A stretch of DNA of 64,000 bases from Parcubacteria group bacterium GW2011_GWA2_42_14 (GTDB lineage: Bacteria; Patescibacteriota; Minisyncoccia; Sungbacterales; GWA2-42-14), in NCBI GenBank assembly GCA_000998135.1, contig LCCV01000004.1, forward strand, positions 21,681 through 85,680. Reading direction: 5' to 3'. Below are positions 4,455 through 55,494 of the stretch, piece by piece (position 1 is the stretch's first letter; each line of letters starts with the position of its first letter). The position numbers and the translations under genes were made by a program. Under the pieces are notes generated by a model, which made no database searches, was not told the origin of the DNA, and saw nothing but the letters and a program-made list of their open reading frames with translations.

Positions 4455-5918
4455 TCATAAAATTTTTTCCAATTGCGCGGCTATATTAAAAACTCTATCC
4501 TCCTGAAACCACGGGGCGATAAACTGGATTCCGACCGGCAATTTTTTACCTTCTTGCTCAACCCCTCGGCCATGCTCGGGGTAAACCCATCCGGCATTCA
4601 TGGAAAGGCCGGGCAAGCCCGCTAAATTGACGGCAACCGTGTAAATATCGGCCAAATACATTTTTAACGGGTCATCAGTTCTTTCTCCGAATTTAAACGC
4701 GGGGGTCGGAGAGGTCGGCCCGGCAATGATATCAACTTCTTTAAACGCTTTTTCAAAATCTTCTTTAATTAACCGCCTGACTTTCTGGGCCTTAAGATAA
4801 TAAGCGTCATAATAACCGGCGGAAAGCGTATATGTTCCGAGCATTATCCGTCTTTTTACTTCATCTCCAAAACCCTCGGCCCGCGTTTTAGCGTAGATAT
4901 CGTATAAACTTGTTTCTTGTCTCTTGTCGCTTGTCACTAATCCATACCGGATTCCATCAAACCGCGCGAGATTAGCCGATACTTCCGCCGGCATAATTAT
5001 ATAGTATGCGGCTAAAGCATATTCAGATATAGGCAAAGATATTTCCTTTATTTCATGGCCCAAGTCCTGAAGTTTTTTTATCGCATCACGTACAATTTTT
5101 TCTACATCAGAATCAAGGCCCTGACCAAAATACTCTTTAGGCAGTCCGATTTTGAATTTAAGATTTGGGATTTGGGATTTGGGATTTGATTCGACAGTTG
5201 TCGAATCTAACGGGTCTTTTCCCTTAATCACATCAAAAACAATTTTGGCGTCTTCAGCTGTTTTGGTTAAAGGACCGATTTGGTCAAGCGAAGAAGCCAT
5301 TGCTATAAGACCAGAACGCGAAACCATGCCATAAGTCGGTTTTAGGCCCACAACTCCGCAAAAAGAGGCGGGCTGACGGATGGAGCCACCGGTATCAGAC
5401 CCAAGGGCGGAAATACACATGTTTGCCGCAACAGCCGCGGCAGAACCGCCGGAAGAGCCGCCCGGAACGCAAGATGGGTCATGGGGATTTTTAGTCGGTT
5501 TAAATGCGGAATTTTCGGTTGAAGAACCCATGGCAAATTCATCCATATTGGTTCTGCCCAAAAAAATCGCACCTGTTTTTTTCATACGGGCAATAGCAGT
5601 CGCGTCATAGGACGCTTCGTAGTTTTCCAAAATTTTTGACGCGGCCGAGACACGTTTTCCCTCAATAAAAATATTGTCTTTAACAGCAAAAGGAATGCCC
5701 CAAAGAGGGGGCAATTCGTTAAAATCGGACGTTGCTCCATCCAGCCGTTTTGCTTCATTAAGCGCGTCTTCCCCATAGACCTCGAGATAGGCATTCAGTT
5801 CTTTATTTTTATCAATCGCTTTCAGGCAATCAGAAACAAGCTCTGCTATGGAAAATTTTTTGCTCCGTAAACCATCCTGAACTTGTTTAATTGTTAATTC
5901 GCAAAGCTCCATTCTCAT
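4455..5918 (-). CDS. gatA: Glu-tRNA(Gln)/Asp-tRNA(Asn) amidotransferase subunit A
   Basis: Amidase signature GGSSGGSAAAVA. 487 aa. Ends in TGA. Contains a repeat-derived in-frame insert (5148-5220). Confidence 0.9.
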   Translation of the reverse strand: MRMELCELTIKQVQDGLRSKKFSIAELVSDCLKAIDKNKELNAYLEVYGEDALNEAKRLDGATSDFNELPPLWGIPFAVKDNIFIEGKRVSAASKILENYEASYDATAIARMKKTGAIFLGRTNMDEFAMGSSTENSAFKPTKNPHDPSCVPGGSSGGSAAAVAANMCISALGSDTGGSIRQPASFCGVVGLKPTYGMVSRSGLIAMASSLDQIGPLTKTAEDAKIVFDVIKGKDPLDSTTVESNPKSQIPNLKFKIGLPKEYFGQGLDSDVEKIVRDAIKKLQDLGHEIKEISLPISEYALAAYYIIMPAEVSANLARFDGIRYGLVTSDKRQETSLYDIYAKTRAEGFGDEVKRRIMLGTYTLSAGYYDAYYLKAQKVRRLIKEDFEKAFKEVDIIAGPTSPTPAFKFGERTDDPLKMYLADIYTVAVNLAGLPGLSMNAGWVYPEHGRGVEQEGKKLPVGIQFIAPWFQEDRVFNIAAQLEKIL

Positions 5919-6006: not shown

Positions 6007-6333
6007 CTAATTAAATACTGACTTCACTTTCACAAATCCCTCTTTATGCTCCGGCGCGGCTTTTACGAGCTGAGCCACTTTTGACAATTTTTCTTCATGG
6101 TTAAAAGCATTTTCAATAATTTCATCTTTCCTCATGCAATTTATTAAATCTGTTCCGCCGGTAAGCGGCGCGACATTTTCCGTATTCACTTCATTTAATT
6201 TCGTCACAAAATTCAAAACCGCCGAAAGGTCTTTTTCGTTTTTCTCTTCCTCTGCCGGAGTTAAATCTATGCGGGCAAGTTTGGAAATATGCTGAACGTC
6301 TTTTTTTGAAATAGCCATTGTTTTTGTCTCCAA
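6007..6333 (-). CDS. gatC: amidotransferase subunit C
   Basis: 108 aa; MAISKKDVQHISKLARIDL... is a typical GatC N-terminus. Lies upstream of gatA on the same strand. Confidence 0.75.
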   Translation of the reverse strand: METKTMAISKKDVQHISKLARIDLTPAEEEKNEKDLSAVLNFVTKLNEVNTENVAPLTGGTDLINCMRKDEIIENAFNHEEKLSKVAQLVKAAPEHKEGFVKVKSVFN

Positions 6334-6417
6334 TCATTCACTAATTTTATTCGCGAATATTCGCGAAATAATTCGCAATTGATTAGTGATTTTGGAGATA
6401 TTCAGAAACCCTTTTTA

Positions 6418-6774
6418 TCAGTTCCGAAGGGTCAATATTGGTTTTACCAAAAAATCCACGATATTAAGTTTTTCGGTGGCTTCGCGATATTCTTCGCGGC
6501 CGTAATTCGTAAGCATCATTACCGGAATTTTTTTAAACTCTCCTTGTTCCTCATTATTTTTAAAACATCTAAGCCGTCAAGTTTCGGCATGCGTATATCA
6601 AGAATCACAAAATCCGGGTTTTTCCTGTTGAATAAGCTCAGGGTCTTCTTTTCCATCCTTGGCAAGCAAAACCTCCATCCCTTTGTTATTAAAGAGTTTT
6701 TTATAAAGAGTCAGAAGCACCGGGTCGTTGTCAACAACCAAGATTATTTTCTTTGTTTCGTTTTCTTGGGGCAT
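6418..6774 (-). pseudogene. CheY-like response-regulator receiver domain with two compensating frameshifts
   Basis: N-terminal (MPQENETKKIILVVDNDP...EKP) and C-terminal (EFKKIPVMMLTNYGREEY...FLVKPI) segments are in one frame. The central DFVILDIRMPKLDGLDVLKIMRNKE segment is in the +1 frame. The frame-1 reading hits TGA after KPGFCDS. Confidence 0.5.
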
Positions 6775-6844
6775 ATAGTTTTAATGATAAATTACCTTAA
6801 TACAAAAATCAATTCTTTAAATTCCAAAATTTGGATTCATAATC

Positions 6845-6958
6845 TCAAAAAATCCAAAATCCTAATACCCAAATCCCGAATAAATTCAAATTTTAAAATT
6901 CAAAATAGTTTCAACATTTGGTCATTCGGGATTTGAAATTTTGAATTTGGGATTTCAA
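6845..6958. repeat. MITE-like repeat, family F1 (AAATCCCAAATCCCGAATAAATTCAAATTTTAAAATTCAAAAT ... inverted partner)
   Basis: Internal inverted repeat. Homologous copy at 10631-10752. Fragments lie inside gatA and gatB. Confidence 0.65.
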
Positions 6959-6987
6959 TATGCTGAATTTGTTTACTATTTATGGCT

Positions 6988-9219
6988 TCATTTAATAATA
7001 TTTAAAAATTCTTCCTCACTCAATATTTTTACTCCAAATTTCATGGCCTTATTATATTTTAAACCCGGATTTTCACCAGCAACGACATAATCAGTTTTTT
7101 TGTTTACACTTTCAGATATTTCTCCGCCCAAATTGCGGATTTTTCCTTTGGCTTCGTCTCGCGTGAACGATTCTAATTCCCCGGTCAGAACAAACGTTTT
7201 ATCTTTAAACTTGTGTTTTTTTGGTTTTTGGGATTCAATTTTAATTTTTAAGCCAGCTTTTTTAAACCTGTTTAAAAGTTCCCGATTTTTTTTGTCCCGG
7301 AACCAGTTATAAATGCTTTTGGCAACGACACCGCCTATGTCTCGGATTTTTTCCAGTTTTTCCGGTGAGGCCAAATTTAAAGCATTAATTGAACCGAAAT
7401 TTTTGGCAAGGTCAATTGCCGTTTCTTCTCCGACATGATGAATTCCGAGAGAATAAATAAAACGGTTTAATTCAATCGTCCTTTTTTGATTTATGGACGC
7501 GATTAACTTAGAGGCGGATTTTTCGGCAAAACGCTCCAGCGGCTCCAGTTCTTCTTTTTTCAGAGTAAAAATATCAGCCGCGTTTTTAATCAGTCCCGAT
7601 TCAATCAGCGCGTCAATTATTTTCGGGCCGAGACCCTGTATATCAAAAGCTTTTTTGGAAATAAAATGATAAAGTTTTTCGCGCTCTACCGCGCCGCAAT
7701 TTTTATTGGAGCAGTAATAGGCAACGCTAAATTCCTGTTTCTTGTCAGCGCTTTCTATTTTTTTTACCGGCGAGTTGCATACGGGGCAATGAAGCGGCAT
7801 ATGAAATTCTTTCGCGTTTTTTGGGCGCAGACGCCGCAAAACTCCGGTAACCGCGGGAATCACGTCTCCGGCCCGTTCGACTATGACCGTATCGCCGGTT
7901 CTCACATCAAGTCGGCGAATTTCATCTATGTTATGAAGAGTGGCATGAGTAACGGTTACTCCGCCTATTCTTACCGGTTTTAATGTTGCCACCGGAGTTA
8001 AAACTCCGGTTCTTCCGACCTGAACGATTATATTCTTAACAATGGTTGTCGTTTCCTCGGCAGGAAATTTGAAAGCGATAGCGCCTCTCGGAGCTTTTCC
8101 CACAATTCCTAATTTTTCAAAAATTTTTCCGTTATTTATCTGTATCACTACGCCATCAATTAAAAAGGGAAGTTTTTCCCTTTTTCTTCCGACCTCTTTC
8201 CAAAATTCAATAATTTCGTTCGTGTTTTTACAATGTTTCGTAAGCGGTACTGTAGGGAAACCAAGTATTCTCATAATTAAATGTTCTTCCTCGTGGGTTT
8301 CTTGGCCGAGATTCGTAACCAAATCCCAGGCAAAGAATTCAAGGTTTCTTGACGCGGTAATTTTTGGATTAAGCTGTCTTATGGAGCCCGCGGCGATATT
8401 TCGGGGATTGGCAAAAACCGGCAACCCTTTCTTTTTCTGTTCCTTGTTTGCCGCGTTAAACGCGTCTTTGGGCATATAAACTTCGCCTCTTACTTCAATT
8501 TCAGTAATTTTATGGATTGATGAGAGGAATTGCTTAACGCGCGGATATTTTTCAAGAATAATTTTTATTTCCTTGTGTTTTTTGGATAATTCTACGATAT
8601 TTTTTTGTATGCTCAGCGGGATTGATTCCACTGTTTTTAAGTTTTCCGTAACGTCTTCGCCGGTAATTCCGTCTCCGCGGGTTGACCCCGTTAGAAGTTT
8701 AAATAAAATGTTACTTGATTCAAGGGGCATAAGGCGAAAGCCGTTTTGCTTTAAGCTGTTATTGTCATAGTTGGCGTGTTGCCGGACTCCTAACCGGATT
8801 GAGCCGGTTTTAAAAACGCCGTTTTTATAAATGAGAGATACGGCAAAACCGTCGCCCTTGGCTTCGGCAAAATAATCTAATTCTGAAACATGAAACTTGA
8901 AATCTGAAACAAGTTTTTTGATACGGGTTTCCCATTCATGAAGTTCTTCTTCGGAAAAAGCGTCATTTAAAGAAGTCATGCGAACCGTATGCGCAACTTT
9001 TCTGAATTTTTCCAAAGGATTGCCGCCGACCCTTTGCGTCGGCGAATCCGGTGTTAAAAACTCGGGGAACTGTTTTTCGAGTTTCATCAGTTCGTTTTTT
9101 AGGGAATCCAAAGCGGCGTCGGAAATTTCCTGTTTGTCCAAGACATGATAAAGATAGCGGTGATAATTGATTTCTTTTTTTAGTTTTTCTATGCGATCAA
9201 AAACCCTTTTTTTATCCAT
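6988..9219 (-). CDS. ligA: NAD-dependent DNA ligase
   Basis: 743 aa. Adenylation K-x-DG region, Cys4 zinc finger (CPVCNSP...CSNKNCG), HhH and C-terminal BRCT. Ends in TGA. Confidence 0.9.
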   Translation of the reverse strand: MDKKRVFDRIEKLKKEINYHRYLYHVLDKQEISDAALDSLKNELMKLEKQFPEFLTPDSPTQRVGGNPLEKFRKVAHTVRMTSLNDAFSEEELHEWETRIKKLVSDFKFHVSELDYFAEAKGDGFAVSLIYKNGVFKTGSIRLGVRQHANYDNNSLKQNGFRLMPLESSNILFKLLTGSTRGDGITGEDVTENLKTVESIPLSIQKNIVELSKKHKEIKIILEKYPRVKQFLSSIHKITEIEVRGEVYMPKDAFNAANKEQKKKGLPVFANPRNIAAGSIRQLNPKITASRNLEFFAWDLVTNLGQETHEEEHLIMRILGFPTVPLTKHCKNTNEIIEFWKEVGRKREKLPFLIDGVVIQINNGKIFEKLGIVGKAPRGAIAFKFPAEETTTIVKNIIVQVGRTGVLTPVATLKPVRIGGVTVTHATLHNIDEIRRLDVRTGDTVIVERAGDVIPAVTGVLRRLRPKNAKEFHMPLHCPVCNSPVKKIESADKKQEFSVAYYCSNKNCGAVEREKLYHFISKKAFDIQGLGPKIIDALIESGLIKNAADIFTLKKEELEPLERFAEKSASKLIASINQKRTIELNRFIYSLGIHHVGEETAIDLAKNFGSINALNLASPEKLEKIRDIGGVVAKSIYNWFRDKKNRELLNRFKKAGLKIKIESQKPKKHKFKDKTFVLTGELESFTRDEAKGKIRNLGGEISESVNKKTDYVVAGENPGLKYNKAMKFGVKILSEEEFLNIIK

Positions 9220-9466: not shown

Positions 9467-10621
9467 TTAACACTGCCACGCCGGATCTCCCGGGTCTCCG
9501 GTCGGCTTTTTATAGTTATATTCCTTTAAAACTTCATTATCCTGAAGGGTTTTTGAAAAAATTTTTATTTCATCCATAATTCCCTGGAAATTCTGGGCTA
9601 AATTATCAATATTTAATCCGAGTCGCAGCGGTTCATTGCCCTGAGTCAGACTTTCTCCGCGGGGGATAGGAGAGCCTAAAATAATGCCGTTTATATAAAA
9701 TCTTACCTGCGACCCGTCGTAAGTAACCGCGGCATGCGTCCACCTGTTGAGGGTGGTTGCTCCGACCGCGGCGGAATCAGTCGTGAATTCCGTTCCGGCC
9801 GAATCTTTAAATTTAAAACGCAAGTTAAAATTTCCGGTTACCGGCTGGAACAGATAAAAACCGTATGTTTCTTCGGTAGCCCCCGCTCCTTTTTTTAAAA
9901 TAGTTTTGTATCCGTTGACAGCGCTTTTATTACAAACCCAGGAGGTTATGGAAATCGGCCAGTTGAGATTTATGCTTGATGAATTTGGAAACGTTACGCG
10001 GTCATTTTCCGTGTCAAAATACTGCAGTGCTCCGCCGAATACTACCAGCGGAATCGTATTTTGTCTTATTGGGTCTTCTGTTTCAACGCTTGTGGAAAGA
10101 CCCAAAACGCCGTCATTATCGTTGGCCGTCCAGTCAAAAACCGTTTGGCTTGATTCATTGTCAAATCTCCACCAGCCCGCCAAGTTCTCTGCTTCAAGCA
10201 TGGGATACTTAAAAAAGAACGAGCGCTTGGAAAGAAATGAGGAAGTTGTGTCACAGGGCGATCCTCCCGGATATTGTCCTACTCCTAGAATTTCAGTGTA
10301 GCCGGTTCCGGTTTTTTTTGACACTTTTACCGAATTGCAGGCGTTGTTGGAGGCGGTTATTAGCGGGGTGGTCCAGCAATCGTTTGAAAGATTCTGACAA
10401 ATGGCACGGGAAACTCTGTCAAGATAAACCGTTTTTTCAACTATTTCGTCAGCCGCGTAAAGCGCGAAAAACGATGCTCGTATGTCGCCGGAAAGCATAA
10501 GTTCGCTGTAAATAATATCAAATATTCCGAGGGAAATTGAGAGCATTAAAGAGAGCAAAAAGACGGTAAGGAGAAGACTTATACCTCGTTCTTTTTTTAA
10601 TTTTTTCTGCCGCGCTTTCAT
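9467..10621 (-). CDS. pilus-associated protein: N-terminal hydrophobic pilin-like segment plus C-terminal LamG (concanavalin-like) domain
   Basis: MKARQKKLKKERGISLLLTVFLL... N-terminus. C-terminal RFYINGI...FQGIMDEIKIF resembles LamG. Last gene of the pilin operon. The upstream in-frame ATG at 10660 lies inside repeat F1. Confidence 0.5.
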   Translation of the reverse strand: MKARQKKLKKERGISLLLTVFLLSLMLSISLGIFDIIYSELMLSGDIRASFFALYAADEIVEKTVYLDRVSRAICQNLSNDCWTTPLITASNNACNSVKVSKKTGTGYTEILGVGQYPGGSPCDTTSSFLSKRSFFFKYPMLEAENLAGWWRFDNESSQTVFDWTANDNDGVLGLSTSVETEDPIRQNTIPLVVFGGALQYFDTENDRVTFPNSSSINLNWPISITSWVCNKSAVNGYKTILKKGAGATEETYGFYLFQPVTGNFNLRFKFKDSAGTEFTTDSAAVGATTLNRWTHAAVTYDGSQVRFYINGIILGSPIPRGESLTQGNEPLRLGLNIDNLAQNFQGIMDEIKIFSKTLQDNEVLKEYNYKKPTGDPGDPAWQC

Positions 10622-10630
10622 ATTGTTTTT

Positions 10631-10752
10631 AAATCCAAAATCCCAATATCTAAATCTCAAATAAATTCAAATTTCAAAATTCAAATTAGTTTCGGCATTT
10701 GGTCACTTGATTTTTGATATTATTTAGGATTTGAGATTTTGAATTTGGAATT
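10631..10752. repeat. MITE-like repeat, family F1 (second copy)
   Basis: Aligns with 6845-6958 over about 115 bp. Confidence 0.65.
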
Positions 10753-10763
10753 TTAAAGGAATT

Positions 10764-11342
10764 TTAAAGGTTGACATCTCTCACTCTCTGCGTTACCGTT
10801 GTCTGCAAATTCATCGTGGTGTAAAGCCGGAGCTTGGGGTCAAAGGCCTTGGCTTTGAAAGAAATGGTTAAGCGGGGCTGGCCGTCATCGCCGGCAGAGT
10901 CAGTTCCGGTAACCCTTATGATTAACGTTTCAACAATAACTTCCGGCGCGGTTACCGGAGTGCCGTTGGCGCAATCGGGGTCAGTTGTCCAATTGTTTAT
11001 TTTATAAATTCCGCCTGGTAAATCGGGGTCGGGTCCGCTCGGACCATCGGGGTCGGGCGGGTCATAAAAAGCATATCCTATCGCGTTATTGAACTGGTCG
11101 CGAAAATTAATTTGGGTATTGCTTTGTCCGTTGCAGGCCTCAAGCAAAAAACCGGTTCCGGTTCTTATTTCTTTGGTAATGGATTCAATCCCGAATCTGA
11201 CGTTATCCACGACATTTTGAATGGCCGCGGCTTTATATTGGGCGTTTTTGGCGGCAACTAAAATATTGGCGGTTACCATCGCCACGAAAGCAAAAATTCC
11301 CAAAGCTACGGTTGTTTCAAGAAGTGATACTCCGCGTTTCAT
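10764..11342 (-). CDS. type IV pilin-like (minor pilin or pseudopilin)
   Basis: MKRGVSLLETTVALGIFAFV: class III signal, G then VSLLE with Glu at +5. Confidence 0.65.
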   Translation of the reverse strand: MKRGVSLLETTVALGIFAFVAMVTANILVAAKNAQYKAAAIQNVVDNVRFGIESITKEIRTGTGFLLEACNGQSNTQINFRDQFNNAIGYAFYDPPDPDGPSGPDPDLPGGIYKINNWTTDPDCANGTPVTAPEVIVETLIIRVTGTDSAGDDGQPRLTISFKAKAFDPKLRLYTTMNLQTTVTQRVRDVNL

Positions 11343-11409
11343 GAATCATTAATCATGAACCATAAATCATTAACTACTTGTTCAATGTTTTATGTTCCAA
11401 GTATAAAGT

Positions 11410-12078
11410 TTATCTCCAATTATATAATATCTCCGTTTGCACGAGCGTGCGCGAAATCGAGCCGTCCTGCCAAAGTATGGTAACATCTACTTTTATACGG
11501 TCCGAAGCGGGAATAGTGGTGCTTGTGCCGGAACAAGGCGCGGGACCGGGAGGGTCAATACAGACGGTTTCAGGACCAGGGTCAGAAATAGTTATTTTCC
11601 TTTTAAAAGTAGTAACTTGCGGATTAGGGTCGGCAAGGCAGCTGTAGGCGTATAATCCGTAGTTGGGATAAGTGGCTGTTGGCGGAGTTTGGCAGAAATT
11701 CAAAAAACGACCGGAGGCGCCGAAAGCAATAAGTCTTGGTTCAGCGTCAGTTAAATCATAAGTTGCGTCAACTTCCCAATTTCCGTTGGCAAGGGTTGTG
11801 CAGTTAGAAGAAGTATCGGTAATTGCCCTCCAATCAGGATCAGGGTTTTCATCGAAGTCAGCTCCGTCAGGTCCTACGCAAGACGCAAGAACATTGGAAT
11901 CCCGGAAATAACGAATCATTTCAATTCCTTCCTGCGCCAAGTTGGCGGCGACCAGACGATTTTTCGCGGATTTGGAGGAAAGAATGCCCCGGGATATAAG
12001 CATAAACGGACCGATAACGGCGGCAATAATAATGGTAAGAGCGACGATGGATTCAATTATGGTGAAACCCTTCTTCAT
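11410..12078 (-). CDS. type IV pilin
   Basis: MKKGFTIIESIVALTIIIAAV: canonical prepilin peptidase site G/FTIIE. Confidence 0.75.
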   Translation of the reverse strand: MKKGFTIIESIVALTIIIAAVIGPFMLISRGILSSKSAKNRLVAANLAQEGIEMIRYFRDSNVLASCVGPDGADFDENPDPDWRAITDTSSNCTTLANGNWEVDATYDLTDAEPRLIAFGASGRFLNFCQTPPTATYPNYGLYAYSCLADPNPQVTTFKRKITISDPGPETVCIDPPGPAPCSGTSTTIPASDRIKVDVTILWQDGSISRTLVQTEILYNWR

Positions 12079-12145
12079 GAATCATGAATCATGAATCATG
12101 AATCATGTTTTATATTACATGTTCCATGTTTCATGTTTCATCATA
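12079..12145. repeat. heptamer tandem repeats (ATGAATC)x4 and (CATGTTY)x3 abutting the pilin start codon
   Basis: Read directly from the sequence. A degenerate version lies at 11341-11375, upstream of the second pilin. Confidence 0.8.
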
Positions 12146-13465
12146 TTATGGTATTTTACTCCACAACTCCTTAATTCGCGAGCCAATTCCAGATTTCTCT
12201 TCTAATTTACCCGAAACAATTTGATGTTTCTTAAGCTCGTTTTCAAAATCTTCCCGCGTTAAATTTTTTGCGCCAACACCGCTGAACTCTTTGATAGATT
12301 CAAACGGCAAACCAAACTTTTCATAAAAGTAAAAGGCAATCGGAGCATCAATCAATGAATTTTCGGATTTCTTTTTTAACAGCTCTTTCAGCCCCTTAGC
12401 CATCATTTCCGTGAAACCAAGGCGCTCTTTTTTTATTATATCATTTATAATCCTGATTGAGTCCGCCGGATTTTTAAAATCGCTGTTATAAAGTTTAACC
12501 ATTTTTTCAATAATTTCTTCAAACAGACCTTCTGTAATTTTTATCAATCTTTCGTATACGAATAATCTTCTTAATAAATTCCGGATGCCGATTTTAAGCA
12601 ATTGTTCCGATTCGCCAGCCGGAATTTCGTTGGCCAGAAAACAAACGGCGCGAAGATGGTCTACCGCGATTCTTTTTTGCCGTTCCGTTAAAGCGGTATT
12701 TTGAAGCGGCAAAAATAGGCCATCAAAAATATCGGTTTCAAAAACATTTGATTTTCCATTGGCAACGGCGGTTAATCTTTCGAGGCCGGTAACGCTCGCA
12801 ATGCCTTGAACATCAAGACGTTCAATTTTTCTAATATTTTTTCCGGAAATAAGTTTTTTGTGCGTATCCGGAAAATAATAATCAACAAACACAACGTTCC
12901 AGACGCCAATATCTTTTATATAAATTTCGGAGGTAGAGCCGCAAATTCCTTCGTCGCCGGCCGGCCCCCAAAAATTTTCTTTCAGGCCGAGCCGCTGGAT
13001 ATAAGTTGCCCCGAGTTCTTTCCATATATATTCTGAATCTTTATCCAAAGAAAAACCGGAACCTCCGCTAAAAATCGTCACGTAATCTATGAAAATATTC
13101 AGATTTTTGAAAAAATCGCTTGTTATTTTTATGGCGGTTTGTTTTTTGTATCCGCCAAAAGTTAAGGCCGTGAGCATTTCAAAAAAAGTAAGATGCGAAT
13201 TATCGCCGACATTTTCGGCGTCTTCCGGACGAAAACAGTATTGGGAAGAAACCGCGTTGGGCGCCCCTAGCGGCTTATTTAGGCGCGGTTCAGGGTCGTC
13301 CAGGGGATTGATTTCTGACTTGAAATATTTTTCAAAATATTCAATGCCGGAAGAAGTTAAAAGTTTTTTTTGGTTATCAAAAATAAGAGGAGCCGATGGA
13401 ACAAAAATATGTTCCCGTCTTTCAAAAAATTCAAAAAAGCGCCGTTTTAAATCATGACTCTTCAT
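12146..13465 (-). CDS. alanyl-tRNA synthetase catalytic-domain-like protein (truncated, divergent)
   Basis: 439 aa aligns to the AlaRS N-terminal region: N-term ...FFE...H..VPS, HLTFFEMLTALTFGGY, NFWGPAGDEGICGSTSEIY, VWNVVFVDY and TGLERL. It lacks the GGKHND block, and the conserved Asp before TGMGLER is Val. No editing or C-Ala domains follow. Confidence 0.6.
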   Translation of the reverse strand: MKSHDLKRRFFEFFERREHIFVPSAPLIFDNQKKLLTSSGIEYFEKYFKSEINPLDDPEPRLNKPLGAPNAVSSQYCFRPEDAENVGDNSHLTFFEMLTALTFGGYKKQTAIKITSDFFKNLNIFIDYVTIFSGGSGFSLDKDSEYIWKELGATYIQRLGLKENFWGPAGDEGICGSTSEIYIKDIGVWNVVFVDYYFPDTHKKLISGKNIRKIERLDVQGIASVTGLERLTAVANGKSNVFETDIFDGLFLPLQNTALTERQKRIAVDHLRAVCFLANEIPAGESEQLLKIGIRNLLRRLFVYERLIKITEGLFEEIIEKMVKLYNSDFKNPADSIRIINDIIKKERLGFTEMMAKGLKELLKKKSENSLIDAPIAFYFYEKFGLPFESIKEFSGVGAKNLTREDFENELKKHQIVSGKLEEKSGIGSRIKELWSKIP

Positions 13466-21291: not shown

Positions 21292-21332
21292 GTAAAAGGT
21301 CTTTAAGCCCTTTTTGTTTCAGAACCAGTATA

Positions 21333-21437
21333 GACCTTTTGCAAAATAAGGTTTATTCCCAAAATTTTATTCCCTGAGCCTGTCGAAGGGTAAAATTTTG
21401 GCTTAAAATCAAGGTATGTCTTCGACAAGCTCAGACA
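21333..21437. repeat. MITE-like repeat, family F4 (GACCTTTTGCAAAATAAGG ... CCTGAGCCTGTCGAAGGGTAA ... GGTATGTCTTCGACAAGCTCAG)
   Basis: Inverted repeats CTGAGCCTGTCGAAGG / CTTCGACAAGCTCAG. Other copies at 31021-31163 and 56984-57050, and a fragment at 58199-58222. Confidence 0.65.
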
Positions 21438-21472
21438 ATAATGAATAATAGTCTTATTTTGCAAAGGGTCTT

Positions 21473-25203: not shown

Positions 25204-25346
25204 TTGTTTATCCAAAAAAATTTAAGGCATGAACTAAAATTAACACAGTCGGCAACGTTTTTTTGCAAAATTAGTTAAGGTCTGTTACTATGTATTGTAG
25301 ATATAGAGATTGTGAATTGTGTTATGAAATGCAGTTTTTACTCGTT

Positions 25347-25376
25347 TCATAATTCATAATTCATAATTCATAATTC
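25347..25376. repeat. heptamer tandem repeat (CATAATT)x4 abutting the GTG start of the next gene
   Basis: Read directly. Confidence 0.8.
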
Positions 25377-25802
25377 GTGAAAAGTGTGGTAATTTGCGGT
25401 TCACAACGATACAAAGAGGAAATTAAAAAATTTGCCAACCGGCTTAGGGAATTAGGCGTGCCTATTGTTTTTGAGCCGAATTTTGAGCGGCAACGGAAAA
25501 AAATGCTTGCGAAAGCCGAAAAAGAGCGATTGAAAATTAAATCATATAGAGACAGGGTACCCGCAATGGTGCATGAGCATTTTGATAGAATAAGAAAAGC
25601 AGATGTTGGATACTTCTATAATAAAAACGGTTATTTAGGAGTTAATTCAACGCTGGAACTCGGATTTGCCCACGGGAAAAATATGGTTATATACGCCCTT
25701 GAACCGGAAAGGGAGGTTGCCGAAGGAGGAGAAATCTGCCGTGATATTCTTTATACGGAAATAATTGAAACGCCGGAAGAATTAGTGAAGCGATTAATTT
25801 GA
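25377..25802 (+). CDS. nucleoside 2-deoxyribosyltransferase / DNPH1(Rcl)-like protein, paralog A
   Basis: Flavodoxin-like pattern: VVICGSQRY ... FYNKNGYLGVNSTLELGFAHGK (the conserved ...GT.(F)ELG.A.. glutamate motif) ... IYAL. GTG start. Paralogous to 27569-28027. Confidence 0.5.
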   Translation: MKSVVICGSQRYKEEIKKFANRLRELGVPIVFEPNFERQRKKMLAKAEKERLKIKSYRDRVPAMVHEHFDRIRKADVGYFYNKNGYLGVNSTLELGFAHGKNMVIYALEPEREVAEGGEICRDILYTEIIETPEELVKRLI

Positions 25803-27433: not shown

Positions 27434-27568
27434 TTGCAAAAAACGCTCGTAATTCTGCGGGCTTTTTTTATTGAATGGAGTGTGATATGCTTTAGAGACA
27501 AGTGACATGGGACATGCGACAAGGAAAATTAAACCCTTGTCTCCTGTCTCTTGTTTCATGTCGCTAAG

Positions 27569-28310: not shown

Positions 28311-28390
28311 TGTCATCCTGAGGCCGTAGAGGCCGAAGGATCTCTTATTCGATTATTTTTTAGAGATTCTTCGCTTCGCTCAGAATGACG
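28311..28390. repeat. MITE-like repeat, family F3 (CGTCATTCTGAGG ... GAAGAATCTC ... GAGATTCTTC ... TCAGAATGACG)
   Basis: Nested inverted repeats. Other copies at 42337-42429 and 44187-44269. Confidence 0.6.
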
Positions 28391-29968
28391 TCAGAAAAAT
28401 TGGCAACCTATGCGCCAGTAATCGGCCTAGAAATTCACGCTGAACTAAACACCAAAACCAAGATGTTTTGCGATTCTTTGAATGACCCGGATGAAAAACA
28501 TCCCAATCTTAACATTTGTCCTGTTTGCATGGGGCATCCCGGAACTCTGCCCGTCATCAATCAGGAAGCGGTAAAAAAAGTAATTCAGGTGGGTTTGGCG
28601 CTGGGAGGAGAAATTCCGGAATTTTCGCAATTTGACAGGAAGAATTATTTTTATCCGGATTTGCCCAAGGGGTATCAGATTTCGCAATATAAGTATCCGC
28701 TTGTTCAAGGCGGAGTTTTAGAGATTGGCGGCAAGAAGATTCGCATTACCCGAATCCATCTTGAAGAAGATGCCGGGCGGCTTATTCATGAAGGAGGCCC
28801 TTCGACAAGCCCAGGGCGACAAGCTTCGCTTGTTGACTTTAATCGCGCGGGGCGGCCTCTTATGGAACTCGTAACCGAGCCGGATTTAAGAAGTGGAGAA
28901 GATGTTCGTGTTTTTGGGGAAAAGCTTCAGCAGATTTTGCGGTATGTCGGGGCTTCAAACGCTGACATGGAGAAAGGCGAAATGAGGGTTGAAGTGAATA
29001 TATCACTTCGACAAATCCCAAATCCCAAATCCCAAATCCCGAATAAATCCGAAATTCAAAATTCAAATGACCCAAACACCTTCGGTACTAAAGTAGAAAT
29101 TAAGAATATAAACTCATTCAAATACGCGGAGGATGCGGTGAATTATGAAATTAAAAGGCAGACGGAAATTCTTGAAAGCGGAGGGAAAATTGTTCAGGAA
29201 ACAAGAGGGTGGAATGAACGAAAGGGCGAGTCATTTTCCCAACGTTCTAAAGAAGAATCTCATGATTATCGCTATTTCCCCGAGCCGGATTTGCCCCCCT
29301 TGAATATTTCCCGTGAATTAGTTGAGGAATTAAAAGGTTCATTGCGTGAATTGCCGGAAGCAAAAAAATTAAGATTTATTGATGAATATGGTATTGACGC
29401 AAAACTGGCGGAAATAATTGTGCGTGAAAAAGCGTTGGCGGATTATTTTGAAAGCGTTGTTTCGGAAGTTAAAGAATGGGAAGCTTCTACTCCAGAAACG
29501 ATTAAGGTCCAACCTTCCGCGGGAGGTCAGACCCTGAACCTTGCTCGTCTGGCAGCCAATTTTATAACTGGCGATTTTTTGAAACTTTTGCATGAAACTT
29601 CGGCATCTGTTTCGGAAACCTTGATTACTCCTGAAAATTTCGGCGAATTTTTAACATACTTGGCCGAAGACAAAATTTCTTCAGCCGGCGCCAAAATAGT
29701 TTTTGAAGAAATGTTTAGGACGGGTGCTGACCCTTCGGAAATTATCCGCGATAAAAATATGCTGCAGGTAAAAGATAGTTCGGAACTGGAAGCAATAATT
29801 AAAAAAATTATTGAAGCCAACCCCAAACCGGTTGATGACTATAAAAAAGGTGCCCAAAATTCTTTGCAATTTTTGATGGGACAGGTAATGAAAGAAACAA
29901 AAGGGCGGGCTAACCCAAAAATGGTTCAGGACCTGATTCAAAAATTTATTGAAGTCAGACTTCCATAG
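28385..29968 (+). CDS. gatB: amidotransferase subunit B
   Basis: YAPVIGLEIHAELNTKTKMFC..., and a C-terminal GatB/YqeY-type domain. Contains a repeat-derived in-frame insert (29012-29068). Confidence 0.9.
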   Translation: MTSEKLATYAPVIGLEIHAELNTKTKMFCDSLNDPDEKHPNLNICPVCMGHPGTLPVINQEAVKKVIQVGLALGGEIPEFSQFDRKNYFYPDLPKGYQISQYKYPLVQGGVLEIGGKKIRITRIHLEEDAGRLIHEGGPSTSPGRQASLVDFNRAGRPLMELVTEPDLRSGEDVRVFGEKLQQILRYVGASNADMEKGEMRVEVNISLRQIPNPKSQIPNKSEIQNSNDPNTFGTKVEIKNINSFKYAEDAVNYEIKRQTEILESGGKIVQETRGWNERKGESFSQRSKEESHDYRYFPEPDLPPLNISRELVEELKGSLRELPEAKKLRFIDEYGIDAKLAEIIVREKALADYFESVVSEVKEWEASTPETIKVQPSAGGQTLNLARLAANFITGDFLKLLHETSASVSETLITPENFGEFLTYLAEDKISSAGAKIVFEEMFRTGADPSEIIRDKNMLQVKDSSELEAIIKKIIEANPKPVDDYKKGAQNSLQFLMGQVMKETKGRANPKMVQDLIQKFIEVRLP

Positions 29969-30018: not shown

Positions 30019-31020
30019 ATGTCTTTGGAAAAATTAAAAACTTATTATTCCGAGAGCGCGGCTCGAGCCATGATTTCCGATTTTCCGGTTTGCCGGCCCA
30101 ATCAATCTGTTGAGGAGGCGCGTTCTTATATTTTGGAAGGAGCGAGGCACTTTGAAACCATTAATTATATTTATGTTATAGGAGACGATAAAAAGCTTCT
30201 CGGAACCGTTTCGCTCCGCGAACTTTTTCAGGCAGAAAAAGAGCGGAAGATTTCCGGCATCATGAAAACTGGTCCGGTTTTTCTTCATCCTCATTCTGAC
30301 CAGGAAAAAGCTGTTCTTTTGGCTTTGCATAATAATATCAAAGCTGTGCCGGTGGTTGACCAGAACCATATTTTATTGGGGATAATACCGTCCGACAAAA
30401 TACTCCAGATTCTGCATTCGGAACATGTGGAGGATCTTTTGAGGGTTGCCGGTATTACAAAATCAATTGAAGAGGTTGCGCATTTGGGCAAGGAATCTTC
30501 GTTTAAGCTCTTTGGACGCAGAATCCCCTCGCTTTTAATAGGCCTTTTTGCGGGCATTGTTGCCGCTTGGTGGATAAGCTCGTTTGAGCATATGATTGAG
30601 GCCGAGTTTCTTTTTGTCGCGTTTATTCCCGCTGTTGTTTATCTTTCTGACGCGGTAGGAACGCAGACGCAGATATTATTTATAAGAGATATGACTTTTG
30701 CCGAACTGTTTCGGACATCGTCTTATATTATCCAGGAATTGAAAGTTGGACTGTTAATATCCATTGCCCTTTCTATGCTTTTTATCGGCGGCGGATTCTT
30801 AATGGGCGGTTCCGTGCAATTTGCCGCAATATTAGTCATTACCGTCGTTTTATCGGTGTTTGCGGCCATGGCCGTATCGCTCTTTGTTCCGTGGCTTCTT
30901 ATTCGTCTGAAACATGACCCGGCCTTGGCTTCCGGCCCTTTTTCTACGGCAGTTTCCGATGTTTTTAGTCTTGTAATTTATTTCACGGTTGCTTCAGTGA
31001 TTTTGAATTTATTTTCTTAA
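30019..31020 (+). CDS. mgtE: magnesium transporter MgtE-like (CBS pair plus MgtE membrane domain, no N-terminal MgtE_N)
   Basis: CBS-like segments followed by five hydrophobic helices and the DPALASGPFSTAVSDVFSLVIYF motif. Confidence 0.65.
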   Translation: MSLEKLKTYYSESAARAMISDFPVCRPNQSVEEARSYILEGARHFETINYIYVIGDDKKLLGTVSLRELFQAEKERKISGIMKTGPVFLHPHSDQEKAVLLALHNNIKAVPVVDQNHILLGIIPSDKILQILHSEHVEDLLRVAGITKSIEEVAHLGKESSFKLFGRRIPSLLIGLFAGIVAAWWISSFEHMIEAEFLFVAFIPAVVYLSDAVGTQTQILFIRDMTFAELFRTSSYIIQELKVGLLISIALSMLFIGGGFLMGGSVQFAAILVITVVLSVFAAMAVSLFVPWLLIRLKHDPALASGPFSTAVSDVFSLVIYFTVASVILNLFS

Positions 31021-31163
31021 GACCTTTTGCAAAATAAGGATTATAGCCGAAATTTTTATGGTGAGCCCGTCGAACCATTATTCCCTGAGTATGTCGAAGG
31101 GTAATAGTTCAATAAACTCACTATAAAAATTTTGGCTTAAAATCAAGGTATGTCTTCGACAAG
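31021..31163. repeat. MITE-like repeat, family F4 (copy 2)
   Basis: Starts at the base after the mgtE stop and ends just before the partial tRNA copy. Confidence 0.65.
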
Positions 31164-31180
31164 CCCCGTTGAAATGTGGT

Positions 31181-31220
31181 GCGAGAATAGTTTAGTGGCA
31201 GAACGACTGCTTCCCAATCC
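31181..31220 (+). other. partial duplicate of the tRNA-Gly 5' half (about 40 nt, no T-arm)
   Basis: GCGAGAATAGTTTAGTGGCAGAACGACTGCTTCCCAATCC, compared with GCGAGATTGGTTTAGTGGTAAAACGAGTGCTTCCCAAGCA in the intact gene 56 nt downstream. Confidence 0.6.
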
Positions 31221-31236
31221 CCGTTAGAAATAGAAT

Positions 31237-31307
31237 GCGAGATTGGTTTAGTGGTAAAACGAGTGCTTCCCAAGCATTAGACAGGAGTTCGATTCTCCTA
31301 TCTCGCA
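31237..31307 (+). tRNA. tRNA-Gly (anticodon CCC)
   Basis: Manual fold: acceptor GCGAGAT/ATCTCGC with G1-C72, C2-G71, G3-C70; anticodon loop TTCCCAA; T-arm AGGAG-TTCGATT-CTCCT. No encoded CCA. Confidence 0.7.
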
Positions 31308-31480
31308 CAATAGTGGACTTTTCGCGCTTCGGCACATCAATCGCCGTTTCTATTTCAGAAAATCTGCGGGTTCTAACATCGTCTAATTGCCCGTATAGAG
31401 AAATGGAACTTTTTATTGCTGATTATTAAAATCTTCTGAGAAAGAAATGGTTTTTGAGTGGTCGGGTGAGGTTCTAACCA
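31308..31480. repeat. module X, copy 1, of a modular repeat of about 180 nt
   Basis: Shares GTGGAC...TTCAGAAA(T)CTCGCGGGTTCTAAC...TATAGAGAAA...TTCTGAGAAAGAAATGGTTTTTGAGTGGTCGGGTGAGGTTCTAAC with 32185-32368 and 33135-33450. Confidence 0.6.
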
Positions 31481-31623
31481 AAAACCTACTAGCTATTGAC
31501 TTATTTTTAGTTTTGTAATAGTCTTGATAATAGAAGTTTCAACCTACCCGAACCCCTCAAGCCGAGTGTTCGGCTTCAAAGGTAAATTTCGGCAAAAACA
31601 AACAGAGAAGGAGGGACCGAAAG

Positions 31624-32082
31624 ATGTTCGGAGTAATCATCGCGGTTTTGATCGGACTGTTTCAGTACATTTTTGTCACGAAGACGCCGGAGGCAATCTG
31701 GCTGACTTCCACGGGCTTTCTGTTTTGGTGGTACATAGTGTGGTCGTCAATCCTTGCCATCATCGTTTTCCTTGTGATGTTGGGTATCACTGGTGCCACG
31801 ACATTCGCGGCTGGATCCACTGGATACGGTGCTGGTAGCAAGTTGTTGCGGGGTATTGGTGGTTTTGTTGGAGGCGGAGCTCTTTCATTGCTGGTCGGTG
31901 TTTTGTTCTTCATTTCCGCTGGCCTAAAAATCGGAGGCATATACTTGCTTTCAACTGCAGTTGTACTTACCGAGCAGGGCTATGTGTGGAATACTACGAC
32001 TTTGATTTTCGGCACCCTTGCTTTGGTCGTTGGACTCATTATGAGCAAATCTTCAGGTTCTTCATCCTCGTCAAAATCCTAG
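31624..32082 (+). CDS. small Gly-rich integral membrane protein with a Ser-rich tail
   Basis: 152 aa with four hydrophobic segments and a ...SSGSSSSSKS C-terminus. Confidence 0.45.
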   Translation: MFGVIIAVLIGLFQYIFVTKTPEAIWLTSTGFLFWWYIVWSSILAIIVFLVMLGITGATTFAAGSTGYGAGSKLLRGIGGFVGGGALSLLVGVLFFISAGLKIGGIYLLSTAVVLTEQGYVWNTTTLIFGTLALVVGLIMSKSSGSSSSSKS

Positions 32083-32103
32083 ACTGGCGAGGCAAACGAG
32101 TTT

Positions 32104-32135
32104 GGCTGGTTGAGCGTATCAACCAGCCGTTTTTT
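32104..32135. terminator. intrinsic terminator
   Basis: GGCTGGTTGAGCGTATCAACCAGCC hairpin followed by TTTTTT. Confidence 0.6.
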
Positions 32136-32184
32136 ATGTAAAATCAGTTCGAGAGAGGTTCTAACATCGTCTATAAAAGTGCAC

Positions 32185-32368
32185 ACTAGTGGACCTTTAG
32201 CGTTCTTGCCGCGCGAAAAGTATTTAGACTTCAGAAATCTCGGAGGTTCTAACGCCGTCTCGTTGCTTGTATAGGGAAAGAGAAAAATTTTTAATTGTCA
32301 AAACCAATTCTTCTGAGAAAGAAATGGTTTTTGAGTGGTCGGGTGAGGTTCTAACTAAAAACCACGAG
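32185..32368. repeat. module X, copy 2
   Basis: See 31308-31480. Confidence 0.6.
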
Positions 32369-32447
32369 ACCTTGTATTTTTTAAGGGAATGATATAATAT
32401 TCTCTACAGAATAGAACACAACAGATACACATTAGGAGGTTTAGACG

Positions 32448-32819
32448 ATGGGAAAGATGGCTTTGCTCGCTGTTTTATTGAGTGTTTTCGTTTTGACCGC
32501 TTGCGACAATGCGCCGCGTTTACCACAAGGAACGCTTGTGAAAGAAGACAACGCAGAAATCCAGGCGCAGTTTGACCGACTTAGCAAAGATGAAACCGCT
32601 ACCGTCACAATCGGAGACGAACATGTAATGTTGATGGTTTTAAAAGATTTCATGAGTACGGACAACATCCGTGGTGTTGGTGGCGGTGATCCATGCAAAG
32701 CATACCGACTTACTGCGAAGGATGGGACAAAAGAAGTTGGGGTTGTCTGCAAAAGTATGCCGTTCGGCAAGAAGTGGGAACATCGCCCGTGGCGCGAATG
32801 GTTTCATTCACTTAGATAA
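32448..32819 (+). CDS. putative lipoprotein
   Basis: MGKMALLAVLLSVFVLTAC lipobox. 123 aa. Confidence 0.45.
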   Translation: MGKMALLAVLLSVFVLTACDNAPRLPQGTLVKEDNAEIQAQFDRLSKDETATVTIGDEHVMLMVLKDFMSTDNIRGVGGGDPCKAYRLTAKDGTKEVGVVCKSMPFGKKWEHRPWREWFHSLR

Positions 32820-33134
32820 TCGTCTAACAGCACAAGCGCCCTTGAGGACACAACCCCAGGGGCATTTTCTTTCAAAATCGAGGTTCTAACGTCGTCTATA
32901 AAAGTGCACCAAAATCTGATTTTCGGAAAATTGACCGACTTTTTCGTTGGCGGCGCAAAGCGCCGCCACCGAAATGGTCTGGAAATTTGCAATTCGTCAG
33001 ATTTTGGTGTGTCTTTACGGTTTGGCTCGAACTCATTTTATCCGAAATTCCTAAAAACTGACTGGAGGCCGCGCTTCGCGCGGAGAATCAGGAATTTTTG
33101 ATAAAATAGTTTCGAGCCGTACTGTAAAGATACA

Positions 33135-33450
33135 CAATAGTGGACTTTTAGCGCTTCGGCGCATCAATTGCCGTTTCTATTTCAGAAATCTCGCGGGTTC
33201 TCCTCCTTCGCTCTACGAGCTTCGGCGGACGCAGTAACACTTGCCTTGCCGTAGCTTCAGCGAAGGCAGGTCGTCTCGCTGCCCGCTTGCCCTGCCGTAG
33301 CTTTACGCGACTGCGTGCCACCTTAGCTTTAGCGGTGGAGCAAGGCGGGTATAGAGAAGTAGAACTTTTTATTGCTAAAAACTAAAATTTTCTGAAAAAG
33401 AAATGGTTTCTCAATGGTTTTGCAGAGGTTCTAACAAAAAAGCGGCTTGA
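33135..33450. repeat. module X, copy 3, with a GC-rich hairpin-rich insertion of about 150 nt (33201-33347)
   Basis: The module is split at CGCGGGTTCT | ... | GGGTATAGAGAAG. The insert contains repeated CC..GCCGTAGCTTYA..G hairpins. Confidence 0.55.
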
Positions 33451-33486
33451 TGTTATCGCGCCGCTATGGATAGTGGAATAGTGGTT

Positions 33487-41035: not shown

Positions 41036-41128
41036 TGTTGCTTAATAATTTTTTGGGAAAATTTGATGCAAAAAACCCTTATTTTAAGCCACTAATTTTT
41101 TAAAAAAACGGCTAAAATCTTAATAGAC
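41036..41128. repeat. element F8 (AATAGACCTGTTGCTTAATA ... TTAATAGAC); its core is inverted relative to the copy at 55382-55478
   Basis: The central 70 bp is the exact reverse complement of the corresponding segment at 55400-55470. Flanked by TTAATA/TATTAA. Confidence 0.6.
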
Positions 41129-55478: not shown

Positions 55479-55494
55479 AATGCGGAACAAAGCC

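Follow-up and report, generated by a model that had tools for sequence, protein, structure and literature searches.

The locus described here raises the question of why two subunits, GatA and GatB, of one essential enzyme, the tRNA-amidating GatCAB, carry the identical peptide NPKSQIPN. The window, which is the whole 64-kb stretch of DNA that was analyzed, derives from a groundwater Parcubacteria/Candidatus Sungbacteria genome of the candidate phyla radiation (CPR). The original prediction, made from this sequence, held that an intergenic mobile repeat had inserted into both gatA and gatB and had been exapted there as the same peptide module. We found that the peptide is indeed shared and that its identity follows from the arithmetic of a repeated heptanucleotide, AAATCCC. 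The gatA and gatB segments are probably tolerated selfish or slippage-prone DNA, present as in-frame single-arm remnants of a dispersed hairpin family (F1).

Both host genes were readily identified. The gatA gene (4455–5918, minus strand) encodes a GatA amidase subunit of 487 aa with the PF01425 domain, which shows 60–79% identity to GatA orthologs and matches structure 4WJ3_A (E = 5.6e-145). The gatB gene (28385–29968, plus strand) encodes a subunit of 527 aa with PF02934 and PF02637, with matches in the PDB to 3AL0_B (E = 6.6e-132) and 3H0L_B; an AlphaFold2 (AF2) model of this protein reached a predicted local distance difference test score (pLDDT) of 83.4 and a predicted template-modeling score (pTM) of 0.80, with TM scores of 0.75–0.88 to GatB structure chains. 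An open reading frame (ORF) adjoining gatA (6007–6333, minus strand) corresponds to gatC, as the syntenic locus of a sister genome has a PF02686 GatC gene in this position. The features of GatCAB host genes are therefore all present: the amidase-signature domain of GatA, the GatB_N cradle and GatB_Yqey tail of GatB, and gatC beside gatA. The proteins KKS38249.1 and KKS38225.1 of a metagenome-assembled genome match GatB and GatA, respectively, with complete or near-complete identity. For comparison we used the sister genome (L081–L084; 86% protein identity for GatB and 79% for GatA) and an alignment of 120 orthologs per protein. Reading frames were examined at 81 GatB loci, and 206 loci were fetched in all.

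In gatA, the sense strand at 5145–5193 (minus strand) reads TCAAATCCCAAATCCCAAATCCCAAATCTTAAATTCAAAATCGGA, translated as ESNPKSQIPNLKFKIG. It is composed of (AAATCCC)3 AAATCTT AAATTCAAAATC, for which Tandem Repeats Finder (TRF) gives 3.9 copies of the 7-nt unit, and lies in the linker between the DSTT and IGLPKEYF motifs. In gatB, positions 29012–29077 (plus strand) consist of four copies of CAAATCCC followed by GAATAAATCCGAAATTCAAAATTCAAATGACC, together encoding RQIPNPKSQIPNKSEIQNSND; the arrangement can be written as (CAAATCC)4 CGAATAAATCCGAAATTCAAAATTCAAATGACC (4.7 copies according to TRF) and represents one arm of an F1-type element. The peptide stretches at the two sites read ...SLRQIPNPK... 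and ...VESNPKSQIPNLK..., their translation being deduced from the intact frames. The sequences originally quoted, and the NPKSQIPN encoded by the sense-strand (AAATCCC)n runs of both genes, are thus present at these positions. The sequence AAATCCCAAATCCC, allowing at most one mismatch, occurs six times in the window against 0.13 occurrences expected.

The shared peptide is less informative than it appears. Because 7 = 1 mod 3, 21 nt of a heptamer array pass through all three codon phases, and one peptide is therefore obtained in every sense frame: the three sense frames of (AAATCCC)n all give cyclic KSQIPNP, the three antisense frames all give GIWDLGF, and a stop is found in none of the six. 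The first A of AAATCCC is in codon phase 2 in gatA and in phase 1 in gatB, so that the two copies are not read in the same repeat frame, as had been claimed; the frame is moreover irrelevant. Strand is the only free variable, and it is nearly certain that a shared NPKSQIPN is to be expected once both genes hold the tract. Among the matches listed from a metagenome scan for (AAATCCC)3, the polar AAATCCC sense was used in 12 of the 13 low-GC coding hosts (P = 0.003), the mean hydropathy being −1.49 in this sense and +0.84 in the other orientation. Since the identity of the peptide is a matter of arithmetic in any sense frame, it is uninformative with respect to exaptation, and the argument that had been built on it falls away.

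The coding tracts could be traced to the F1 hairpins, of which the 64 kb contain two full and two partial copies. F1a (6836–6962, minus strand) is a 127-nt imperfect hairpin with heptamer arms AAATCCN / NGGATTT and an inner GGTCATT/AATGACC core; it lies approximately 30 nt 3′ of the stop codon of ligA (ORF at 6988–9219, minus strand) and ends in a U6 run. F1b (10617–10756, minus strand; approximately 139–140 nt) lies between two co-directional minus-strand genes. The two align over their full length with approximately 85% identity, including the non-repetitive loop TAGTTTC..CATTTGGTC. On the transcribed minus strand F1a folds at −35.6 kcal/mol (z −4.1) and F1b at −31.9 kcal/mol (z −4.8), and in both cases none of 200 shuffled sequences was as stable. 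The coding copies in gatA and gatB have no RNA structure (−2.8 kcal/mol and z +1.1 for gatB). In a search of the window with Rfam at the gathering threshold, F1 matched no family and only a tRNA (31237–31307) was reported.

The gatB segment aligns with the left arms of F1a and F1b without gaps over approximately 68 nt, through the non-heptamer junction CCCGAATAAAT, and blastn-short matches it to the intergenic element over 55 nt (85% identity, E = 1e-6). The longer version of the tract in the sister gatA is 91% identical to F1b over 55 nt (E = 4e-10). The gatA and gatB tracts have a common order, three to four AAATCCN units followed by AAAT(T/C)CA-type units, after which gatB continues into the AATGACC core. 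This core follows AAATYCN arms in 3 of 8 cases in the window, against 0.03 expected. Among the matches listed from the metagenome scan, it follows 7 of 96 arms in low-GC contigs (0.45 expected), and the association is absent from high-GC contigs (1 of 168 arms, 0.39 expected). In peptides the core reads as an NSNDP, NSNDQ or PNDQS signature. The colinear composite order, together with the junction and the core, indicates that the coding tracts are homologous to one F1 arm and are not independent microsatellites. The proposal that they are repeat-derived is therefore upheld. The remark that point changes in gatB had removed a stop is correct insofar as the raw copies F1a and F1b both contain stops when read in the gatB frame, but survivorship guarantees such a result.

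The same evidence bears on an origin of the tracts in situ, in which slippage on a chance AAATCC-like seed in AT-rich loop codons would have produced them without any relation to the intergenic elements. Heptameric simple sequence repeats (SSRs) are over-represented in many bacteria, with slippage as the proposed cause; different lineages have different heptamer units at the GatA linker and at the corresponding turn of GatB, and some inserts are pure tandem arrays. However, the composite colinear order is common to gatB, the sister gatA, F1a, F1b and contigs from other samples, slippage alone cannot reproduce the junction CCCGAATAAAT and the AATGACC core, and close strains show no copy-number polymorphism. 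We consider independent birth decidedly improbable.

At the protein level, the gatB segment adds approximately 17 aa at the tip of the β11–β12 hairpin of the cradle domain. About 60% of the 120 GatB orthologs have a bare 5-residue turn here (NISLRP.G.E.FGTKVEIKNI), and about 40% carry diverse inserts. The approximately 17 residues are also extra relative to Aquifex 3H0L_B and Thermotoga 3AL0_B, and the solved structures lack the segment, which bears out the claim of an insertion in gatB. In the AF2 model the insert lies between strands 200–210 and 236–242, is non-regular and has a pLDDT below 50 at residues 222–233. In Staphylococcus aureus GatB, a 3-10 turn (K183–E186) between α2 and β11 reads the U1–A72 pair, and the tRNA acceptor pocket is formed by α3, the β12–α3 and β13–β14 loops and this 3-10 turn (PMC2811023). 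Judged by sequence, the K183–E186 turn would correspond to DMEKG here, just upstream of the insert, and by sequence-matched S. aureus numbering the β11–β12 tip is not among the pocket elements listed in that study. The model and the alignments support the gatB segment as lineage-specific extra sequence at a predicted surface turn.

This turn has received other sequences in related loci, with in-frame perfect hairpins in five (L017, L027, L032, L044 and L070) and tandem arrays in four (L018, L005, L026 and L028). In a neighbor-joining tree of 119 GatB proteins the insert carriers are scattered, though the tree is star-like and without support values; one 65%-identical ortholog, P0010, shares the exact junction and length. 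When 17 other GatB inserts were compared with their own genomes, a second copy was found only in L044, as in the window, in an underpowered comparison limited to flanks of at most 20 kb. One Patescibacteria clade (a subset of L029–L078, for instance L038 at 10580–10651) has a conserved and apparently structured extension of approximately 24 aa, VQEKGKWEY.NGQI.P.G.YKLNP, at the same turn, which indicates that the turn is also lengthened by ordinary protein evolution and not by repeats alone.

We also considered that the segments might be absent from the mature protein, either as an assembly artefact or through an intervening sequence or translational bypass. Insertions in rRNA genes are known for CPR genomes, and other lineages have hairpin-forming inserts at the same GatB site. 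The segments are nevertheless identical in 4 of 4 members of the GatB cluster, from NCBI, JGI and ENA assemblies, of which one shorter member differs by an N-terminal truncation only, and in 5 of 5 full-length members read of the GatA cluster (six members, the sixth being a 193-aa fragment). The run is also present in the sister genome, and an assembly artefact was rejected on these grounds. An untranslated intervening sequence or bypass was likewise rejected: all 81 GatB loci examined are in-frame and stop-free at the β11–β12 turn, with a stop or frameshift in none, and the coding copies of the window lack RNA structure. A reading without the segments in the protein is scarcely conceivable.

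The situation in gatA differs from that in gatB. The linker from DSTT to IGxPKEYF is hypervariable in every one of the 120 aligned orthologs; its slice spans 41 residues here and 41–79 in the other orthologs, and the linker is 5 residues shorter than that of Pseudomonas aeruginosa GatA (4WJ3_A). In the alignment the heptamer tract fills the linker without net length gain, and the proposed insertion in gatA is in this sense no insertion. Many GatA orthologs have 7-aa periodic peptides in the linker, encoded by many different heptamer units depending on the lineage. The sister gatA shares the run seen here and has in addition an in-frame block of 84 nt, which holds further AAATTCA units together with GC-rich hairpins. 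The block (10621–10704 of sister locus L082) includes the mini-hairpins TCCGCTGAAGGCGGA and TGCCTGCCAGCAGGCA, and its translation is SAEGGSLPASRHGASGG; it may represent another small element nested within the tract. G/S/R-rich inserts that resemble it are present in other GatA and GatB orthologs.

A second heptamer tract of gatA (4906–4943, minus strand), detected by both TRF and the lag-7 scans, has AGACAAG-type units in the sense strand and encodes TSDKRQETS. Its unit is at most one mismatch from the arm unit of an intergenic hairpin at 27493–27561 (the match being to 27494–27521), and GatA is 3 aa longer here than the P. aeruginosa protein. A small perfect palindrome just upstream of the main gatA tract, GATTCGAC-AACT-GTCGAATC, is not kept in the sister and was set aside as coincidence.

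Period-7 tracts are not restricted to AAATCCC. The window contains 6 lag-7 tracts under strict and 10 under relaxed settings, compared with 0 at lags 4–6 and 8–9 and 0.02 in shuffled sequences; in coding sequence they comprise the pair in gatA, a single tract in gatB and a weaker tract in ligA. Many short spacers of the window hold imperfect hairpins whose arms consist of three to four tandem heptamers, with the unit differing between them (AAATCCC; GAATCAT/CATGTTT; GTGTAGA/TCTACTC; GAGACAA/TTGTCTC, the last in the plus-strand hairpin at 27493–27561). Across 80 GatB loci of Patescibacteria, 1.19 Mb in all, we counted 76 lag-7 tracts, 36 of them in coding sequences (CDSs), against 0, 2, 18 and 9 tracts at lags 5, 6, 8 and 9. 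Of the CDS units, 85% are free of stops on at least one strand, compared with 33% of the intergenic ones; freedom from stops on both strands, the case for AAATCCC, is shared by only approximately 4% of intergenic units. Arrays of period 7 and hairpins with heptamer arms appear to be pervasive among the genomes of Patescibacteria, half of the tracts lying in genes. The tracts of gatB fall in three hot spots, two of which match other low-pLDDT regions of the AF2 model.

The metagenome scan returned at least 120 stretches with (AAATCCC)3, at GC contents of 0.20–0.69. Coding hosts were counted only if low-GC or Pfam-confirmed; ORF calls in high-GC contigs were distrusted and set aside, because long stop-free stretches arise there by chance. 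Among the matches listed, AAATCCC runs occur in-frame, in low-GC contigs, in Pfam-confirmed GatA (at the same linker), Peptidase_M24 (Map), a class-I aminoacyl-tRNA synthetase and the GyrA C-terminal domain, and also in Pfam-confirmed Sua5, MnmA, Mur ligase and sortase. With the run in-frame in many unrelated housekeeping genes, its presence in gatA and gatB can hardly be called unusual, as had been suggested. Many of the metagenome stretches listed form hairpins with two arms, at −35 to −73 kcal/mol. Very stable two-armed hairpins with AAATCCC/AAACCCC and GGGATTT heptamers were also seen in high-GC contigs (GC 0.6–0.69; L087–L206, for example L203 5380–5530, L124 85–210 and L171 410–530). These fold at −58 to −73 kcal/mol and lack the AATGACC core, and their contigs clearly belong outside Patescibacteria, so that a hairpin with AAATCCC arms is no property of one lineage. 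AAATCCC/GGGATTT was the commonest heptamer unit found here, with the AATGACC core in CPR-like genomes.

Our explanation of the gatA and gatB segments starts from an F1 family that takes the form of two-armed hairpins where short spacers adjoin the 3′ ends of genes, and of single-arm pieces inside genes. Replication slippage would create the arrays and alter their length 7 nt at a time, and copies would spread by a copy-paste route, which may be transposition, template switching or gene conversion. In spacers the hairpins may serve as a terminator or stabilizer. A copy in a gene would persist only if its length is a multiple of 3, if its unit is stop-free in every sense phase (since 7 = 1 mod 3, all three phases are read), and if it sits in an unconstrained surface loop. 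The sense strand of AAATCCC would fit such loops, as it gives the polar, proline-containing (KSQIPNP)n. The β11–β12 turn of GatB and the DSTT...IGxPKEYF linker of GatA would then be permissive sites that have been colonised repeatedly across the phylum. Given this arithmetic and the permissive sites, the identical NPKSQIPN is a by-product rather than an exapted module, and the segments are probably near-neutral in the proteins.

A number of observations weigh against this explanation. Conservation of the gatB insert equals or exceeds that of the rest of the gene: the sister insert is of equal length and identical at 63 of 66 nt (95%), compared with 84% for the remaining gene. Insert length and junction are kept in P0010 (79% nt identity in the insert, 66% gene-wide), and a recognisable form of the insert is present in a 52%-identical GatB ortholog. 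Such conservation could reflect constraint rather than neutrality. We rejected the stronger notion of exceptional nucleotide conservation, because 8% of equal-sized windows do as well. Furthermore, gatB holds 12 of the 36 CDS heptamer tracts in approximately 12% of the coding nt, an approximately 3-fold enrichment for which permissiveness alone may not be a sufficient cause. The match between CDS and intergenic units within genomes is only suggestive (P = 0.09). Copy number did not vary among the strains of the GatB cluster (4 members) or the GatA cluster (5 full-length members), with no sign of ongoing slippage, though tract lengths differ between more distant relatives.

In a rival reading, the KSQIPNP-type peptide would have been recruited for function in both subunits, for instance as a flexible Pro/Asn/Gln-rich tether that helps these reduced-genome bacteria to assemble GatCAB, form the transamidosome or bind partners. 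The near-identity of the gatB insert in the sister and its retained length and junction in P0010 fit this reading, as does the concentration of heptamer tracts in gatB. Both AAATCCC tracts in the approximately 52 kb of coding sequence sit in Gat subunits, and another GatA has an AAATCCC run at the same linker. On the other hand, the identity of the peptide is arithmetic, orthologs lack the insert or have unrelated ones at the same sites, and at the linker there is a difference of 28 aa from the sister GatA. The insert is of low confidence and non-regular in the AF2 model, its insertion point lies outside the described tRNA acceptor pocket, the peptide occurs in at least eight unrelated protein families, and the precedent of the Rickettsia palindromic elements (RPEs) showed a neutral to slightly detrimental effect. 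Functional exaptation is accordingly highly improbable in our view.

Further points against our explanation concern mobility. A target-site duplication (TSD) was not evident at the gatA and gatB junctions in the alignments inspected, in which no dedicated TSD search was run. No pair of empty and filled F1 sites was available, and a transposase was not identified in the 64 kb, a genome-wide search for one not having been made. The spacer 3′ of ligA in the sister, which is orthologous to the F1a site, holds a different heptamer-flavoured hairpin that is neither F1 nor an empty site. The same facts count against a true miniature inverted-repeat transposable element (MITE). Under this model F1 would be a non-autonomous transposon moved in trans, and gatA and gatB would have received whole copies from which one arm has since disappeared. 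Terminal TA dinucleotides were likewise not seen at the inspected junctions, and the arms are tandem heptamers of variable unit, not fixed terminal inverted repeats (TIRs). In its favor, F1a and F1b are discrete palindromic elements of approximately 125–140 nt with a conserved loop and approximately 85% identity, the sister gatA has its additional 84-nt block with GC-rich hairpins, complete perfect hairpins occur in-frame at the GatB turn of L017, L032 and L044, and L044 has a second copy of the palindrome within the same locus. We regard MITE insertion as unlikely, and the original label of MITE was given without TSD, discrete TIR or transposase. Tolerated remnants of a heptamer-arm hairpin family remain the reading that we prefer for both genes.

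Several other features of the window deserve mention. The hairpin at 12068–12146 (minus strand) is formed by (CATGATT)4, which abuts the ATG of the gene at 11410–12078 (minus strand), and by (ATGAAAC)3 just upstream, with which it can pair over the start codon. A related hairpin lies at 11336–11409 (minus strand). Heptamer arrays run into start codons at 12079–12145 and 11343–11409 (minus-strand genes) and at 25346–25376 (plus-strand gene), where (TTCATAA)4 ends at the start of the gene at 25377–25802 (plus strand). A role of these arrays in translational control is possible.

The ligA gene contains the weaker heptamer tract at 8882–8911 (minus strand), TGAAACA-type on the plus strand and encoding SDFKFHVSE, where the sequence departs from that of the sister LigA. 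It also contains an in-frame insertion of 117 nt (39 aa) at 8683–8799 (minus strand), IRLGVRQHANYDNNSLKQNGFRLMPLESSNILFKLLTGS, directly before the conserved TRGDG motif of the adenylation domain of the NAD-ligase and absent from the sister LigA (…FKTGSTRGDG…). This insertion is flanked by a TGS…TGS duplication (ACCGGCTCA / ACGGGGTCA) that resembles a TSD. It is not a heptamer array, and a second copy was found neither in the window nor in the 206 fetched loci. A response-regulator gene situated between ligA and gatC (approximately 6340–6790, minus strand) is broken by three single-base homopolymer indels (frames 0>1>0>2). The sister gene is intact (130 aa, PF00072, L082 8907–9299), and the broken gene is either a pseudogene or the product of homopolymer assembly errors; the ORF over this region at 6379–6936 (plus strand) is spurious. 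Non-heptamer dispersed repeats include TTATTCCCTGAGCCTGTCGAAGGG-type palindromes and AGACCTTTTGCAAAATAAGG (31020–33500, 21330–21441, 56984–57082, 58194–58225), three repeats of approximately 70 nt around 31306–33418, near the tRNA at 31237–31307, and a perfect 84-nt inverted repeat with arms at 41042–41125 and 55397–55480, 14 kb apart.

Once the arithmetic is seen the coincidence between gatA and gatB is ordinary, and the claim of one peptide exapted by two subunits of an enzyme no longer stands and ought not to be repeated. The lineage-wide heptamer-hairpin phenomenon is moderately interesting and apparently undescribed. It comes with a checkable rule: whatever the frame, a heptamer without stops is translated into the same peptide, as 7 = 1 mod 3. 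The rule explains recurring low-complexity segments of the KSQIPNP/GIWDLGF type in CPR proteins as well as spurious ORFs in metagenomes, since gene callers applied to AAATCCC hairpins would yield KSQIPNP…GFGIWDL 'proteins'. The map of permissive sites in GatA and GatB, with tolerance of up to approximately 27–38 extra residues, bears on alignment, phylogeny and structure prediction of CPR marker proteins and amounts to a natural insertion-tolerance experiment.

How do these elements relate to known repeats? In the open-access literature searched we found no description of tandem AAATCCC/GGGATTT, nor of SSRs, repetitive extragenic palindromic (REP) sequences or MITEs in CPR, which is not proof of absence. 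REP sequences and REPINs are described as short imperfect palindromes at gene 3′ ends that occur as doublets forming hairpins and also as singlets, with proposed roles in termination and mRNA stability (PMC3116915; PMC3733652). F1 can be likened to them by analogy only; its arms are heptamer arrays and much longer. REP/REPIN palindromes measure 20–40 nt, carry GTAG/CGTC tags and go with a RAYT transposase, and neither such a tag nor a RAYT gene was seen here, where no search aimed at them was made.

Heptameric repeats are familiar from cyanobacteria, in which the short tandemly repeated repetitive (STRR) sequences are heptamers. Over-represented heptameric SSRs include GGGAATC in Xanthomonas and GGGGA(T/C)T in Nostoc (PMC4692102, citing a 2007 survey). 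They are described as lying mostly in short spacers near gene ends and as under-represented in CDSs, with slippage proposed as their cause; some form inverted pairs able to fold into stem-loops, and array length and sequence vary between relatives (PMC4692102). The tracts reported here are similar in being tandem 7-nt units of at least three copies, with period 7 in excess. They differ in that about half of the Patescibacteria tracts are in CDSs, and in that the units are A+T-rich, with C-strand AAATCCC, and are coupled to the AATGACC core in low-GC contigs. Direct repeats of the heptamer TAACTGA in Beggiatoaceae, cyanobacteria and Bacteroidetes form arrays directly ahead of start codons; the same paper notes that a translated heptamer array yields a peptide with a period of 7 residues and that stops limit the placement of such arrays in ORFs (MacGregor, 2015; PMC4679880). 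The (CATGATT)4 and (TTCATAA)4 arrays of the window likewise abut start codons. TAACTGA, however, has forward stops and is essentially intergenic, whereas AAATCCC is stop-free in six frames and lies inside essential genes.

The nearest precedent is best seen, by analogy, in the RPEs, of which the elements here would be a CPR counterpart to protein-coding palindromes. RPEs, reported in 2000 and 2002, are dispersed palindromes of approximately 100–150 nt in a reduced-genome bacterium, both intergenic and in-frame in housekeeping genes; they sit at fold-compatible positions and were interpreted as tolerated selfish DNA (PMC10969869; PMC2229807). F1 is similarly a dispersed palindromic stem-loop of approximately 100–150 nt, with similar two-armed hairpins in many contigs, and in-frame copies occur here in gatA, gatB and 8 Pfam-confirmed families. 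Unlike RPEs, the arms are tandem heptanucleotides, so that the peptide is frame-independent and 7-aa periodic, and the gene copies of the window are single arms without the hairpin rather than whole palindromes in an ORF, although other lineages (L017, L032 and L044) have complete hairpins at the GatB site. The lineage, Patescibacteria, is also a different one, with the same GatB turn and GatA linker apparently hit repeatedly across the phylum.

We tentatively raise, as an idea that may well prove too broad, an undescribed class of heptamer-arm hairpin elements in Patescibacteria, and judging from the high-GC contigs in other phyla too. These would disperse within genomes and settle time and again in the same permissive loops of essential enzymes of translation and replication (the GatB turn, the GatA linker, Map, class-I aminoacyl-tRNA synthetase, GyrA and others), as a phylum-scale counterpart of RPEs whose unit makes the peptide frame-independent. 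The excess of heptameric SSRs, their translation into 7-residue repeats and the limits set by stops are already known (PMC4692102; PMC4679880). Apparently new here are the heptamer-built arms, the single-arm gene copies, a unit that is stop-free in six frames, the presence of half of the tracts in CDSs and the reuse of the same loops phylum-wide.

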